The translations under genes and the position numbers were made by a program. The notes below the pieces were generated by a model. That model was not told the origin of the DNA. It worked only from the letters and a program-made list of their open reading frames with translations, and did not search any database. A stretch of 38,977 bases of DNA. It comes from Thermoproteota archaeon. GTDB lineage: Archaea; Asgardarchaeota; Jordiarchaeia; Jordiarchaeales; Freyrarchaeaceae. The stretch is taken from the NCBI GenBank assembly GCA_029258835.1, contig JAPDJY010000087.1, positions 1 through 38,977 on the forward strand. The letters are read 5' to 3'. Of this stretch, positions 21,273 through 33,564 are shown piece after piece (positions within the stretch are counted from its first letter, which is position 1; the number at the start of each line of letters is the position of its first letter).

Positions 21273-21451
21273 ATCTTTTAGAAGGAAAACATTTATAACT
21301 TACCATTCCCTGATTAGTATTACGAATTGTATCGTTTTCAACTATAATACCGATAAGACAACTTAATTAAATTTGCCTTCCCTCCAATCGCCTAACTTCT
21401 CCCTTCAGCTACCATAGATCCAAATAGGCCAATGAATGGATGGTGGGAGGA

Positions 21452-22225
21452 ATGAAAGCAGTTATAGTTGCAGCTGGTAACGGGTCAAGGCTTCGCCCCC
21501 TCACGTTGAAAACTCCGAAGCCCCTCCTGCCAGTCCTAGGCAAACCCCTAATAGTCCACGTGCTCGACGCTTTAGCTAAAGTGCAGGTGGACGAGGTGGC
21601 AGTAGTTACAGGATACCTAGGAAGTAAGGTTAGACGATACCTGAAACCATGGGTGGAGCAGTTAGGTGTTAAGGTTCATTTCATCCATAACCACGAGTAC
21701 GAGAGAGGCAACGGCGTCTCCCTCAAGGTGGCGAGAAAACTCATCAAGCGAGAACCTTTCCTCCTGCTGATGTCCGACCACATAGTTGATGCTGAAGCGA
21801 TACGCCTCCTACTCAATGAAGGAGAGGGCACAAGCCTATGCGTAGACAGAACTCCACATCTCCCTCCACAGCTCAACGACGCCACCAAGGTGCTGGTGGA
21901 CAAGGAAAACTACATAATCGACATAGGTAAGGAGATCCCAGAGTGGAACGGCGTCGACACCGGGGTATTCCTCTGCGACCCGGTGGTGTTTGACGTTGCA
22001 AGCCTCCTCGCTAGGGAGAGGTTCACCGTCACCATAACGGACTGTATGAGGTGGCTCATAAGAAATGGAAGACCTATAAGGGCCGTCGACGTGTCAGGCT
22101 TCCTGTGGCTTGACGTCGACACGCCTGAAGATATGGAGTTCGCAGAGAGGATACTGGGAGGAGTGGAAGGTGCCTCAGAGCTGGGATGGGATAGTGTCAC
22201 GCTCCCTCAACCGGAGAATTTCTAG
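21452..22225 (+). CDS. Inositol-1-phosphate cytidylyltransferase (IPCT)-type nucleotidyltransferase
   Basis: AAGNGSRL..PKPL, YERGNGVSL, LLMSDHI, CVDR, DATKV, VDTGVF, WLDVDTPED. Confidence 0.85.
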   Translation: MKAVIVAAGNGSRLRPLTLKTPKPLLPVLGKPLIVHVLDALAKVQVDEVAVVTGYLGSKVRRYLKPWVEQLGVKVHFIHNHEYERGNGVSLKVARKLIKREPFLLLMSDHIVDAEAIRLLLNEGEGTSLCVDRTPHLPPQLNDATKVLVDKENYIIDIGKEIPEWNGVDTGVFLCDPVVFDVASLLARERFTVTITDCMRWLIRNGRPIRAVDVSGFLWLDVDTPEDMEFAERILGGVEGASELGWDSVTLPQPENF

Positions 22226-22874
22226 GCCTATTGCAAGATTCCTCTCCAAGCACCGTGTGGTTACCCCGAACCAAGTCACCGTTTTAAGCTTTTTAGTAAG
22301 CCTTCTCTCTCCGGTAGCATTCTACTTTGGAATTCAACTCTTAGGAGGTATCCTAGCCCAGCTGTCATCGATCTTAGATGGCGTAGACGGGGACCTAGCT
22401 AAAATGACGGGGAAGACGACTCCCTTCGGCGGATTCCTAGACTCGGTTCTCGACCGGTATGCTGACGTAGCGATCCTAGCTGGAATGGGCTTGTATGGTT
22501 TCTTCTTTGAAGGCTTAAAGTACTCTCCTGCCTTCTGCTTACTTGCAATACTGGGAGCCCTCATGGTAAGCTATAGCCGCGCTGCATCAGAAAGGATCCC
22601 CGGCTTCTCTTTCCAGTCGCCAATAAGCAACTACCTCGCAAACCGTGACGTTAGGCTCTTCATCATCTTCATAGCGTCGATCCTCTCCTTTGTCTCCGTC
22701 GCTTTCTCAATCATGATCCCAGTCATCTCGTACTCTCTAATCGTAATAGCGGCGATCACGAACCTCACCGTTGCAAGGCGGCTGCTAGAAGTTCGCACCT
22801 GGCAATCTTCCAATGCGAGGAGTCAGCTACAAGGGATGGTTAGCCTATCTAGCAGGTTTAACCACCCAACTTAG
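22170..22874 (+). CDS. CDP-alcohol phosphotransferase, di-myo-inositol-phosphate-phosphate synthase (DIPPS)-like
   Basis: DGIVSRSLNRRISRPI, TPNQVT, DGVDGDLA...GGFLDSVLDRYAD, MVSYSRA, RDVRLF; adjacent to IPCT. Confidence 0.85.
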   Translation: MPQSWDGIVSRSLNRRISRPIARFLSKHRVVTPNQVTVLSFLVSLLSPVAFYFGIQLLGGILAQLSSILDGVDGDLAKMTGKTTPFGGFLDSVLDRYADVAILAGMGLYGFFFEGLKYSPAFCLLAILGALMVSYSRAASERIPGFSFQSPISNYLANRDVRLFIIFIASILSFVSVAFSIMIPVISYSLIVIAAITNLTVARRLLEVRTWQSSNARSQLQGMVSLSSRFNHPT

Positions 22875-23648
22875 ATGGTGTCCTTCTTGAAGCGTCTCAA
22901 AGTTTTCGTCTGCGGCTCGGTCGGATACGGCGGAAAAGAGGAAGTAACGTCCCTTCAACACTTCCTTAAATCCGCTGGCTTTGACGTCATAGACCAGTTT
23001 GAAAACGGAGACTATGCTGACGTGGAGGACTTTAGAGGGAAACACGACCTGTGTAGAAAAATAGTTTTAAGCGACCTTCAGAAGTGCATGAAGGCAGACG
23101 TGGTGGTGCTAGTGGCTTCCAGGCCGAGCTTCGGAGCAGCCATCGAATCCTTCACAGCAGCGACTAGGGGGAAACCCGTTATAGCATACTGCCCCGAGAA
23201 GACTCGCTCTCCATGGCCACTGCACATAGCCCAGTACGTGGCGAGGAGCAAGGAGGAGCTCGCCTCTCTGCTCCAGAAGATTAAAAGTCCATCTCCCAAG
23301 TTCAAGATCAGGGTGATACCCAACGTTCACAGCGGTCACAAAGCCAAGTTCACCTATGATGGCTTCACATGCCTATGCCCGGTCACGGGAAAACCGGACA
23401 AAGCAAAAATAGAAGTAGAATACATCCCCCGCAATAAACTCATAGAGTACGAGTCCCTCAGCGACTACTTCAAATTCTTTAGGGGGAAACCTCTTCACCA
23501 TGAGGAAGTAGTATCCATCATTCTAAAGGACCTAATGGAACGTGTAGAACCAGAGTACATTAAGGTCACAGCAGAGTTCAAGGAGCGGAGCGGGGTAAAG
23601 GCCACGGTATCAAAGCAAGCAGGGAAGATTCGCCCTTCCCACTGCTAG
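22875..23648 (+). CDS. Fusion: nucleoside deoxyribosyltransferase/DNPH1-like N-glycosidase domain + QueF/QueF-like T-fold domain
   Basis: N-terminal VFVCGS...DLQKCMKADVVV..PSFGAAIE..GKPVI; C-terminal FTCLCPVTGKPD..IEVEYIP...HHEE...ERSGV. Confidence 0.8.
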   Translation: MVSFLKRLKVFVCGSVGYGGKEEVTSLQHFLKSAGFDVIDQFENGDYADVEDFRGKHDLCRKIVLSDLQKCMKADVVVLVASRPSFGAAIESFTAATRGKPVIAYCPEKTRSPWPLHIAQYVARSKEELASLLQKIKSPSPKFKIRVIPNVHSGHKAKFTYDGFTCLCPVTGKPDKAKIEVEYIPRNKLIEYESLSDYFKFFRGKPLHHEEVVSIILKDLMERVEPEYIKVTAEFKERSGVKATVSKQAGKIRPSHC

Positions 23649-27248: not shown

Positions 27249-28088
27249 CTAAAGTTTTGCCATCACTCTAACTATTTCCGGGAAAATCCTTTCGGCGACG
27301 TCTCTCCTGCTACCTCCATGGGTTATCACCAAGTAGCGCCCTTCGCACACTTCCTCGGCGCACTCCAAAACAATCCTTGCAAGTTTAGGGTAAACTTCCT
27401 CTGTCAACCCTCTGTCACCATAATCCCCCTGGCACGTGTCGTGCCCAAATAGATGTATTATCATCACCGGCCTGAACTTTCTCACTCTTGGTATGAACTC
27501 CTCCTCGACGAGGCGTAAATATTCCTCATCGGCCACCTTCCACCCCACGTTCACATCGACTTTCGTTCCCTCATCCTCCACGGTATCCATGCTGCAGAAG
27601 CAGACGTGAAGCACGTCTCGATCTCCCATGAAGATCGACCTTGTACCATCCCCGTGATGGCTATCCGTGTCGATGATCGCGTACCTTTCCCTGCCATAGG
27701 TCTCCCTCATGTACGCTACGACCGGGCCAGTGCAGGAGACGTATGTTCCACCCCATGCGCTGGATGGCCCTGCATGGTGTCCTGCCGCCACGTCGAACAC
27801 AAGTGCGTTCTCCAGCTCACCTGTCCTTATTTTCTCAGCCGCTTTGATGCATCCCCCAACGGAAAGCATAGCTCCCTTACGGTACCACGACCTTTTCAAG
27901 TTTTCAACCAGCTCTCTACTGTGAACTTTAAGTAAAATTTCTTCGGAGACCTCCTTCGGCTCGATAAGCACGACGTTTGGGTTGTGTAGGAGGTCGCCGA
28001 GCACCTCGGGAAATCTGGCGAACTTGTCTCCTATCACAGGCCAGTCTTTACCCTTAAACTCTTCGTGGAAGAATACTCCGGTAACCAT
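27249..28088 (-). CDS. Histone deacetylase / acetylpolyamine amidohydrolase family protein
   Basis: LKVHS, GHHAG, IIDTDSHHGDGT, GHD..GD. Confidence 0.85.
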   Translation of the reverse strand: MVTGVFFHEEFKGKDWPVIGDKFARFPEVLGDLLHNPNVVLIEPKEVSEEILLKVHSRELVENLKRSWYRKGAMLSVGGCIKAAEKIRTGELENALVFDVAAGHHAGPSSAWGGTYVSCTGPVVAYMRETYGRERYAIIDTDSHHGDGTRSIFMGDRDVLHVCFCSMDTVEDEGTKVDVNVGWKVADEEYLRLVEEEFIPRVRKFRPVMIIHLFGHDTCQGDYGDRGLTEEVYPKLARIVLECAEEVCEGRYLVITHGGSRRDVAERIFPEIVRVMAKL

Positions 28089-28216
28089 CCTCCACCCTCC
28101 GGTGAGGAAACATCCAAGCATCCCTTCTTGAAACCTTTTCATAGAGGAAATACTTTTTTAAGTTTATTTCCAGTATTTTTTTCCTTAACTACCGAACTTA
28201 AAGGGAGGGTTTCTTT

Positions 28217-31933: not shown

Positions 31934-33508
31934 TTACCCTTTAAATTCCAGCTCCCTTCTAAGCCTCTTAATAAATCGTATGCTCCATTTAACCTTCACC
32001 TTGGCAAGCCTCTTCGTCTCCTTAAAGTGCATGGTACGAGCAAAATTTTCAGTGTCCCTTTCCAAGTGTCCTATAGCATCCTGTATGGTCTCCCCCTTCC
32101 ATCCTGCCTCCTTTAGACACCTGGCGAGTCCTAGGAGCCCTAAGGCGTCCACCTTGTCGGCATCCCAAAGTATCTTTTCTTCCAAGCTTGTTAATCTTTC
32201 GGGATGGTCGGTGTGATGGCTTAAAATCGCCTTAATGACCTTTTCAAGCCTCTCCTCTGGAATCCTCCCCTCCAGCAAGGATCTAGCAACACTCACCCCA
32301 ATCTCGGCGTGTCTCGCCTCGTCTTTCCCCCTACCCGCGTCGTGGAGTATGCTTGCAAGCCTGACCGCCTCAACGTCTGCATCATACTTCAAAGCCAGGC
32401 GAGTTGAACACGTTAAAACTCTTTTCATATGATCCCACCCGTGGGCTGGGTCTGTTCTCCCTAGAAGGTCTCTAGCCACCATTAAGCACTTCCTCTCAAG
32501 CAAATATCTCCTAACGATCCTTGAAACGTCCATTATTGACGTTTCACCTTTAACGACGTCCCCATATTCAGGCTTGCTGATTATAAGGGGGACATACATT
32601 TCTTCTCGTGAGACGCCGCCATGACTGCCTCTGAGCCTTTGCTCGCTCAGCTCGTAGCCGGGCTGGGCTGCCACCATCAAGTCTCCGCTTCTCTTATTTA
32701 AAAGAGAAATTTTGTCTGCCTCCTCCCGTGAAACGATCAGGTTAAACCTTCCATCCTCTCTGAGTGCCTTCCTAGCTTCCTCCACTTCTCCATCCAAGTA
32801 TATGTGGGCGAACCTGTGGGAAGCGCAAACCACGGGGTTAAAGTCAGCTAAAACCTCGTAAACCCTAATGTTTTCTCTAACCTCGGTCATCCCGTGGTCA
32901 GCGGTCACCACTATAAGGTAATCCTCGTACGACTCCTCCAGCACCTCCCTGATCCTCCCTATCAGCCTGTCGTCTTTTTCTAAGAGCCTGATTTCCTCGC
33001 TGCTCAGGGGTCCAAACTTCTCCCCGACTACGTCGACTCCAGGGAAGTTTACGGCGATAACTTCAGGCTGGTGGGCTTCGATCATCTCTAAAACCTTTGC
33101 CGTAGCATACTCGTCCTGACGCCAAACATCCCTAGCCTGAACTTCCCCTTTAGAGACGACGAGCTTAGCCCCTTTCGTGATCGGCTCACCCACACATCCC
33201 CCACAAGCCACCTCCTCGAAAATCGTTGACGCTTCTACGTAGAGGTTAACGTCGTCGACGTCAAAATCGATCACTCTCCCCTCCTCTGCGTCATAGTAAA
33301 AGTTTCCGACGACGCCGTGCTCTCCCGGAGTGCGCCCGGTAACTATGGAGCAGTGGGCTGTGTAAGTCGCCGTGGGCACAACGGACTTACATTTAAAGGT
33401 CCAGGCTCCCTCGGTCATGACTTCATCCAGCACCGGCGTGTCAGCTTTTTTAAACGCTTTAACGTTGCATCCATCCAAAACAACTATTACGGCGCAGCTT
33501 CCACCCAT
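31934..33508 (-). CDS. Alkaline-phosphatase-superfamily (NPP/phosphonoacetate hydrolase-like) domain fused to an HD domain
   Basis: VLDG, PTATYTAHCSIVTG..PGEHGVVGN, TADHGM, GSHGG; then HGWDH, ILHDAG, H, SHH, DADKVD. Confidence 0.85.
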   Translation of the reverse strand: MGGSCAVIVVLDGCNVKAFKKADTPVLDEVMTEGAWTFKCKSVVPTATYTAHCSIVTGRTPGEHGVVGNFYYDAEEGRVIDFDVDDVNLYVEASTIFEEVACGGCVGEPITKGAKLVVSKGEVQARDVWRQDEYATAKVLEMIEAHQPEVIAVNFPGVDVVGEKFGPLSSEEIRLLEKDDRLIGRIREVLEESYEDYLIVVTADHGMTEVRENIRVYEVLADFNPVVCASHRFAHIYLDGEVEEARKALREDGRFNLIVSREEADKISLLNKRSGDLMVAAQPGYELSEQRLRGSHGGVSREEMYVPLIISKPEYGDVVKGETSIMDVSRIVRRYLLERKCLMVARDLLGRTDPAHGWDHMKRVLTCSTRLALKYDADVEAVRLASILHDAGRGKDEARHAEIGVSVARSLLEGRIPEERLEKVIKAILSHHTDHPERLTSLEEKILWDADKVDALGLLGLARCLKEAGWKGETIQDAIGHLERDTENFARTMHFKETKRLAKVKVKWSIRFIKRLRRELEFKG

Positions 33509-33564
33509 GGTCTCCCATATTCCTCCGTGTTCCATTTTAAACATTGCTTATGCAGTACCGGGGG

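Follow-up and report, generated by a model that had tools for sequence, protein, structure and literature searches.

Archaeosine (G+) occurs in nearly all archaeal tRNAs. 7-Deazapurine nucleotides act as potent antimetabolites, which makes it plausible that their producers require a salvage or clean-up route; for archaeosine nucleotides, we know of none. The bacterial proteins QueK and QueL constitute a salvage route for queuine. Another enzyme, Qng1, frees queuine from queuosine 5'-monophosphate (Q-5'-MP) derived from tRNA turnover (PMC9881137). This report examines a gene at positions 22875 to 23648 of a 38,977-nucleotide stretch of archaeal DNA (GenBank assembly GCA_029258835.1, contig JAPDJY010000087.1, positions 1 to 38,977 of the forward strand; hereafter, the whole stretch is called the window) from a member of the Jordarchaeia (Asgard). 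Its product, P0001, fuses a domain of the nucleoside 2-deoxyribosyltransferase (NDT)/DNPH1 type to a QueF-like T-fold domain. Based on its domains, residues and gene linkage, we propose, at a probability of roughly 0.45, that the fusion is a bifunctional 7-deazaguanine nucleotide salvage or sanitation enzyme, which would convert a nucleotide to a base and the base to a processed base.

Each half of the protein has well-described relatives from which it also departs. With unimodular QueF (Bacillus subtilis YkvM, 4F8B; bsQueF), the fusion shares the T-fold, 36% identity (E 1e-18), equivalents of Cys55, Asp62, His96, Glu97 and Glu78, and a backdoor cysteine of the Cys53 type; it differs by the exchanges Lys80 to Glu, Lys83 to D/K/S, Ser79 to Tyr and Phe95 to His, by its NDT-like domain, and by its occurrence in archaea without a preQ1-using TGT. 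QueF-L (Pyrobaculum calidifontis, 5JYX), which is NH4+-dependent and acts on preQ0-tRNA, has the same fold without the NADPH-binding lysines, likewise has Glu at the Lys80 position, and shares the thioimide-forming Cys, the Asp and the His-Glu pair. However, identity to QueF-L is only 27% (E 4e-10), and QueF-L has no N-terminal domain, carries Ala in place of the Glu that binds N9-H, and occurs where ArcS is lacking, whereas the genome of the fusion has both ArcS and RaSEA. With DNPH1/Rcl and MilB/BcmB, the N-terminal half has in common the fold (Z 11.5-16), the PS(F/L)G...E nucleophile motif, the general-acid Asp and the position of a phosphate-binding Ser, but the fusion has I/F/L/V in place of the triad Tyr of DNPH1, a MilB-like trait, and the signatures DYSxVxDFR and SPWP are its own. 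The closest parallel in proposed logic is with Qng1 and QueK/QueL, where a base is freed from a nucleotide or nucleoside and then trimmed for a transglycosylase; those proteins, however, have unrelated folds, handle queuosine rather than archaeosine, and belong to routes known outside the archaea, in eukaryotes and bacteria.

Both domain assignments of P0001 are far above chance, and the motifs on which they rest are invariant family-wide. An AF2 model of the whole open reading frame (ORF) has a pLDDT of 89 and a pTM of 0.83. The initial annotation, made from the sequence alone, had described a fusion of this kind, with an Rcl/DNPH1 pattern and catalytic Glu in the N-terminal half, CPVTGKPD and HEE in the C-terminal half, and EYESLSD in place of the QueF NADPH motif. 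Profile, structure and alignment matches bear out each of these points, and the profile and structure analysis of both halves that it had proposed confirms an NDT-superfamily fold and a QueF domain.

The QueF-like domain

The C-terminal half matches PF14489 (QueF) with an E value of 6.9e-19, and its fold agrees with that of QueF-L at a TM score of 0.9, normalised to 5JYX. In bsQueF, Cys55 is the thioimide nucleophile, Asp62 the general acid, His96 a catalytic residue and Glu97 the base anchor (PMC5372742, PMC13740343). The equivalents of the first two, in the P0001 motif FTCLC168PVTGKPD175, are invariant in all 31 members of the fusion family, as are H209 and E210 for the latter two. Also kept in 31/31 members is E191, the counterpart of bsQueF Glu78, which hydrogen-bonds the pyrrole N9-H of free preQ0 (PMC13740343); in one pairwise alignment the corresponding residue of 5JYX is Ala. 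Two further positions are changed throughout the family, with Ser79, a substrate contact in bsQueF, becoming Tyr (Y192) and Phe95, which stacks in bsQueF, becoming His (H208), both in 31/31. Taken together, the retained residues suggest that the domain can still form a thioimide on a free 7-deazaguanine base, and the preservation of the Glu78 equivalent, where QueF-L has Ala, fits a sequence in which the free base is released before QueF-type chemistry acts on it.

The QueF motif E(S/L)K(S/A)hK(L/Y)(Y/F/W) is replaced in the 31 members by E-Y-E-S-L-(D/K/S)-x-Y. At the Lys80 position, Glu is found in 31/31 members vs K in 106/122 other QueF-family representatives, and the Lys83 position, K in 112/122 of those representatives, is D/K/S. 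Since Lys96 of vcQueF, the equivalent of bsQueF Lys80, contacts the NADPH 2'-phosphate, its replacement by an invariant Glu makes use of NADPH by this domain very unlikely. Cys166 is also invariant in the fusion family; a role for it as a metal ligand was considered and rejected in favour of the documented backdoor cysteine of QueF, Cys53, which is present in 22% of unimodular QueFs and protects the catalytic Cys through a disulfide.

In public records, the members appear under the name 'preQ(1) synthase' or as a 'hypothetical protein'. Were the first name right, the fusion would be an ordinary NAD(P)H-dependent preQ0 reductase whose N-terminal domain is accessory or supplies cofactor binding. 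That explanation would accommodate a score of 95 bits against TIGR03139 (QueF-II; curated cut-off 86.9), the conserved Cys/Asp/His/Glu set with its Glu78 equivalent, the Lys that Jordarchaeial members keep at the Lys83 position, and the bacterial-type TGT that a fusion-bearing Mnemosynella also has. It is nonetheless highly improbable, given that an invariant Glu takes the place of the lysine for the NADPH 2'-phosphate, that the authors of the QueF family definition leave out sequences without the QueF motif, that the window's genome and two others (G001/G003) have only arcTGT and ArcS and thus nothing to use preQ1, and that the N-terminal domain shows an NDT fold whose glycosidase dyad is intact, rather than a site for a dinucleotide. 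The public name is probably wrong.

The glycosidase-like domain

P0001 itself reaches 22.3 bits against PF05014, below the cut-off of 28.8, but the family was matched by 21/21 members tested, with a best E value of 3.9e-7. When the family profile is compared with Rcl, PSFGAAIE91 falls on PSLGVGYE93 and D67 on D69. The AF2 model of this domain (pLDDT 94) finds NDT (7o62, Z 16.2), YtoQ (12.6), MilB (12.4) and Rcl (11.5) as structural matches, and the best matches from Foldseek and VIA (for VIA, the top 8) all belong to the NDT superfamily. Catalysis by DNPH1 depends on Tyr24, Asp80 and Glu104, and two serines, S98 and S128', hold the 5'-phosphate (PMC10603095). In the fusion's domain, D67, S85, G87 and E91 are invariant in 37/37 sequences, P113 and W114 are invariant, and position 112 is S/T. 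The first DNPH1 serine, S98, aligns with S85; the equivalence of S112 to S128' is inferred, not aligned.

At the triad Tyr position (residue 11), the domain family has I/F/L/V/M, never Tyr. In DNPH1 the Tyr selects deoxyribose, and MilB, which accepts ribose, has Phe there (Phe17; PMC10603095). The substitution of a hydrophobic residue, as in MilB, therefore favours a ribonucleoside-5'-monophosphate N-glycosidase rather than DNPH1 proper. The subfamily is further marked by DYSxVxDFR and SPWP, and an exhaustive profile search found many stand-alone proteins of ~130 aa with the same signatures; stand-alone homologues are common in other archaea. The N-terminal domain is thus an autonomous enzyme family, which the fusion specialises. 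At 80 soil and sediment metagenome loci of the stand-alone MDYSxIxDFR group, neither QueF nor any consistent neighbour was found, and a scan for linkage of stand-alone domains to QueF with P0042 alone returned nothing. On one haloarchaeal contig (L099), the stand-alone P0042 (535-939, +) is convergent with a QueF-like gene, P0183 (1050-1541, -), which is also without the NADPH lysines, and a SRAP-like ORF adjoins the pair.

The abundance of stand-alone forms without QueF would be expected if the glycosidase had another or a broad specificity, with the QueF-like domain binding or sensing preQ0 for regulation or sequestration, or converting it by hydration to the amide (ADG); PMC6884629 raises the possibility that water, like ammonia, could attack a thioimide. 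However, strict conservation of the full Cys/Asp/His/Glu set over a long-diverged clade speaks for turnover rather than mere binding, and we hold this alternative to be improbable.

Gene linkage and gene fusion in the Archaeoglobaceae

Directly downstream of the fusion gene, Archaeoglobaceae have a gene for a ~170-aa HD-domain protein at 15 loci and then, at 13 loci, one for a ~180-aa major facilitator superfamily (MFS) half-transporter with six transmembrane segments (6-TM). The stop and start codons within this row mostly overlap by 4 nt, and the same order recurs at 11-15 loci, which have at least four different flanks (FEN1/MoCF, ArgZ-like, AAA ATPase and eIF2-gamma/PIN). In at least two genomes, at L034 (P0186, 406 aa) and L039 (P0185, 417 aa), the HD domain lies in the same ORF, giving one NDT-QueF-HD protein, and in two more genomes (G066/G061) the frame stays open over 409 and 460 aa. 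The HD partner bears an H...HD...D metal motif, and its nearest relatives are YpgQ of B. subtilis (5DQV, E 3e-33), a pyrophosphohydrolase that acts on (d)NTPs and depends on Mn, and E. coli YedJ; PenF, a relative of YpgQ, is a 5'-nucleotidase. Phosphohydrolase, N-glycosidase, base-modifying domain and transporter, set in a row, read as a putative degradative or salvage chain for a nucleotide.

NDT-family enzymes also transfer bases through the same glycosyl-Glu intermediate, which raises the converse idea of biosynthetic base exchange, in which a transferase would place a 7-deazaguanine tailored by the QueF-like domain into an NMP or dNMP destined for DNA, RNA or an MFS-exported metabolite. 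Halovirus HVTV-1, with dPreQ1 in its DNA, a QueF-like gene and no DpdA, is in keeping with such a process, as is the one haloarchaeal contig that pairs a stand-alone N-terminal domain with a QueF-like gene. Against this stand the absence of any homologue of the N-terminal domain from 50,697 phage records, the housekeeping genes on the flanks, the degradative character of the fused phosphohydrolase, and the hydrophobic residue 11, which argues for ribo- rather than deoxyribonucleotides. Base exchange is accordingly judged quite improbable.

7-Deazaguanine genes in the carrier genomes

The window's genome (2.72 Mb, 94.7% complete) encodes arcTGT (548 aa), ArcS (652 aa, with DUF5591, TGT_C2 and PUA), an adjoining RaSEA (TIGR01210, 342 bits), QueC and QueD, together with a single QueF-family gene; at that completeness it yields no further TGT/DpdA-like gene and no match to YhhQ (PF02592). 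Searches for QueE with a B. subtilis-type model gave only weak matches, as in control archaea. With arcTGT, ArcS, RaSEA, QueC and QueD present and no second TGT or DpdA, G+ is made without the fusion, and there is no consumer of preQ1. Hence, the standard euryarchaeal G+-tRNA route is complete without the fusion, which serves neither as the archaeosine synthase nor, usefully, as a preQ1 synthase.

The same inventory bears on whether the protein could be a tRNA-acting archaeosine synthase similar to crenarchaeal QueF-L, converting preQ0-tRNA and NH4+ to G+-tRNA, with a nucleic-acid-binding N-terminal domain. The loss of the NADPH lysine to the same Glu as in QueF-L and the agreement of the folds at a TM score of 0.9 would fit. 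Yet ArcS and RaSEA lie next to each other in the same genome, arcTGT/ArcS pairs occur in fusion-bearing Archaeoglobi, and the N9-H-binding Glu, Ala in QueF-L, is kept, although a pocket for tRNA-bound preQ0 should be open at N9; moreover, the QueF-like domain has a net charge of ~0, resembling bacterial free-base QueFs, and the linked genes, for an HD nucleotide phosphohydrolase and an MFS protein, point to small molecules. Of all the explanations considered here, this is the least probable.

Several details of these genomes are recorded for completeness. The arcTGT gene of the window's genome (contig C1:37909-38880; L002 1444-3090) has TGT and DUF5591-like domains, with no C2/PUA detected, and the RaSEA match next to ArcS, which lies outside the window (contig C14:32238-33185, -), contains one in-frame TGA. 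In Mnemosynella, an unclassified 311-aa radical-SAM gene overlaps the 3' end of the fusion gene (L035 6723-7658 and L038 6725-7654), and the first of these two genomes has a bacterial-type TGT of 418 aa (429 bits) besides arcTGT/ArcS, with no QueC match.

Proposed function

From the identities of the domains, their catalytic residues, the loss of the NADPH lysine, the linkage and the fusion, we infer substrates, a direction for the second step and a physiological role as follows. A YpgQ-type HD partner, fused in some genomes, would first trim a 7-deazaguanine nucleoside triphosphate to the 5'-monophosphate. The N-terminal domain would then act in the manner of DNPH1/MilB, as a retaining N-glycosidase in which Glu91 is the nucleophile and Asp67 the acid, and would cleave the 7-deazaguanine ribonucleoside 5'-monophosphate, probably archaeosine-MP or preQ0-MP from tRNA turnover, to ribose-5-phosphate and the free base. 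The C-terminal domain would hold that base through Glu210 and the N9-H-binding Glu191, and a thioimide at Cys168 would allow reaction at the C7 substituent without NADPH, most likely an interconversion of amidine (G+ base) and nitrile (preQ0), so that arcTGT, for which preQ0 but not G+ base is a substrate, could re-use it. The co-operonic 6-TM MFS half-transporter may import a precursor or export the base. Consistent with such a two-step scheme, none of the 31 members of the family alignment lacks the catalytic residues of either domain.

Among specific forms of the proposal, recovery of preQ0 from archaeosine nucleotides appears most likely, because the G+ base is not accepted by canonical arcTGT (PMC5485725). 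When this is taken further to a dedicated archaeosine recycling pathway, in which the HD protein and the N-terminal domain deliver free G+ base and the QueF-like domain, as a reverse amidinotransferase (amidine to nitrile plus NH3), returns preQ0 to arcTGT, it becomes doubtful. Were it correct, archaea would have their own equivalent of Qng1 and QueK/QueL, and the T-fold would gain a new reaction.

A number of observations weigh against the salvage proposal. Neither in the window nor in other Jordarchaeia do the HD and MFS genes adjoin the fusion. The C-terminal domain still lies above the TIGR03139 equivalog cut-off. The N-terminal domain is not intrinsically 7-deazaguanine-specific, as follows from its widespread stand-alone forms and the 80 loci lacking a QueF neighbour. 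A divergent branch represented by P0033 has lost the Glu of the N-terminal domain while keeping the whole C-terminal signature; fusions of this sort (L051 5986-6753, L048 4588-5373) lie directly after SRP54 and RNase HII. To our knowledge, the QueF-L reaction run backwards, from amidine to nitrile, is without precedent. Finally, QueC is present in 20/32 fusion-bearing vs 52/64 fusion-less Archaeoglobi (Fisher p 0.08, on incomplete metagenome-assembled genomes [MAGs]), an association that is not significant, and the idea of an anticorrelation was dropped for this reason and for the incompleteness of the genomes. The occurrence of the fusion with and without de novo preQ0 synthesis is compatible with both recycling and scavenging and proves neither.

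The initial annotation had already pictured an enzyme for 7-deazaguanine nucleotide salvage or sanitation, and had suggested a search for co-occurring pathway genes. The general idea gains from the HD/MFS operon, the HD fusion and the kept N9-H-binding Glu, but its DNPH1 aspect needs revision, since the DNPH1 Tyr is replaced and the domain looks like a ribonucleotide glycosidase rather than DNPH1 proper. Of the pathway genes, arcTGT, ArcS, QueC and QueD accompany the fusion in the window's genome, and the association with QueC is not significant across the Archaeoglobi. No described pathway of the kind was known to it, and full-text literature searches gave no description of an NDT-QueF fusion. 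New here are the HD operon and HD fusion, the argument from the N9-H-binding Glu, and the ArcS/RaSEA check. The family provides a concrete candidate that can be cloned and that two thermophilic lineages conserve; gene fusion spells out its pathway (HD, glycosidase, QueF-like domain and transporter). If the proposal is right, a third, or reversed, chemistry would join the QueF/QueF-L pair, in a salvage route of a kind not yet described in archaea.

Distribution and phylogeny

A search of 5.8 billion proteins returned 31 full-length relatives with 44-64% identity, and species-representative genomes contain 34 full-length loci, in Jordarchaeia, in Archaeoglobaceae/Mnemosynella and in MAGs labelled 'uncultured archaeon'. 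The fusion is carried by 32/96 Archaeoglobi genomes. In a quick IQ-TREE phylogeny of 153 QueF-family domains, the C-terminal domains of the fusions cluster together inside QueF; the stem of this group is long (0.95 changes per site, SH-aLRT 94), and the group divides into one set from Jordarchaeia and another from Archaeoglobi (support 97). One clade on a long stem points to a single origin of the fusion followed by accelerated change, and the stem, together with the family-specific Y192, E193 and H208, points to a new function of the C-terminal domain.

Other possibilities were set aside. An apparent bacterial full-length fusion (L056, 30% identical) is actually a canonical QueF (ESKSLKLY) behind a spurious high-GC ORF extension. 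A phage origin was rejected, as tblastn of P0001 against phages produced QueF-domain matches only and P0042 produced none. A search for shorter homologues, as potential split forms, gave just two ordinary QueFs. The window's own stretch was found in hydrothermal-vent and marine-sediment metagenomes from 19 studies, and a 219-nt contig of a marine-sediment metatranscriptome is identical to 23207-23425, across the domain junction, which is a weak hint of expression in situ.

Table 1. Coordinates of the fusion gene and of its domains and motifs within the window
Feature	Position	Strand	Basis or proposed role
Whole ORF P0001, 257 aa	22875..23648	+	NDT/DNPH1-like domain fused to QueF-like T-fold domain; stop codon included
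N-terminal domain, residues 1-137	22875..23285	+	Nucleoside 2-deoxyribosyltransferase/DNPH1/MilB fold; PF05014, Rcl profile match, structure search
C13-G-S-V-G-Y-G19 loop after strand 1	22911..22931	+	Position of the DNPH1 GS(I)RGG loop (Rcl alignment), conserved in family; putative phosphate-binding role
Asp67 codon	23073..23075	+	Aligned with DNPH1 general acid (rat D69/human D80); role from PMC10603095
P84-S-F-G-A-A-I-E91	23124..23147	+	Ser85 ~ DNPH1 phosphate-binding Ser; Glu91 ~ catalytic nucleophile (rat E93/human E104)
S112-P-W-P115	23208..23219	+	Signature of the NDT-like subfamily; S112 is a candidate second phosphate-binding Ser
C-terminal QueF-like T-fold domain, residues 145-250	23307..23624	+	PF14489, TIGR03139 and 4f8b/5jyx matches
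C166-L-C168-P-V-T-G-K-P-D175	23370..23399	+	Backdoor Cys (bsQueF position 53), thioimide-forming Cys (Cys55), general acid Asp (Asp62)
E191-Y-E-S-L-S196	23445..23462	+	Altered QueF motif: Glu78 equivalent kept, Lys80 to Glu, Lys83 to Ser
H208-H209-E210	23496..23504	+	Equivalents of bsQueF Phe95-His96-Glu97 (catalytic His; base anchor Glu)

Genomic neighbourhood in the Jordarchaeia

Upstream of the fusion gene, the window contains split IPCT (21440-22225, +) and DIPPS (22110-22874, +) genes for di-myo-inositol phosphate, whose ORFs overlap and whose best PDB matches are 2XME and 4MND. The TAG stop codon of DIPPS (22872-22874) directly abuts the fusion-gene ATG, an arrangement that a strain-variant contig shares and other Jordarchaeia lack; no functional weight is given to it. 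Downstream are a CoA-disulfide-reductase-like gene and Thi4. A search for conserved context among the Jordarchaeia was negative except for Thi4 (convergent), which alone recurs, the IPCT/DIPPS pair being specific to the window's genome and the strain variant.

No YpgQ-type partner lies in the window's own operon. The nearest YpgQ-like genes of this genome are on contig C39 and, 8 kb from the fusion, inside a gene of the window (31934-33544, -) that encodes 536 aa and joins a type I phosphodiesterase/nucleotide pyrophosphatase (NPP; PF01663) to a YpgQ-like HD domain. That HD domain is 35% identical to the Archaeoglobaceae partner, making the NPP-HD protein another nucleotide-trimming fusion. 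A gene of the Hist_deacetyl family is located directly upstream of the NDT-QueF fusion in four Archaeoglobaceae loci (L016 5171-5995, L024 5172-5996, L032 and L037), and one is present within 3.6-5 kb of it in the window (27249-28142, -) and at L012-L014.

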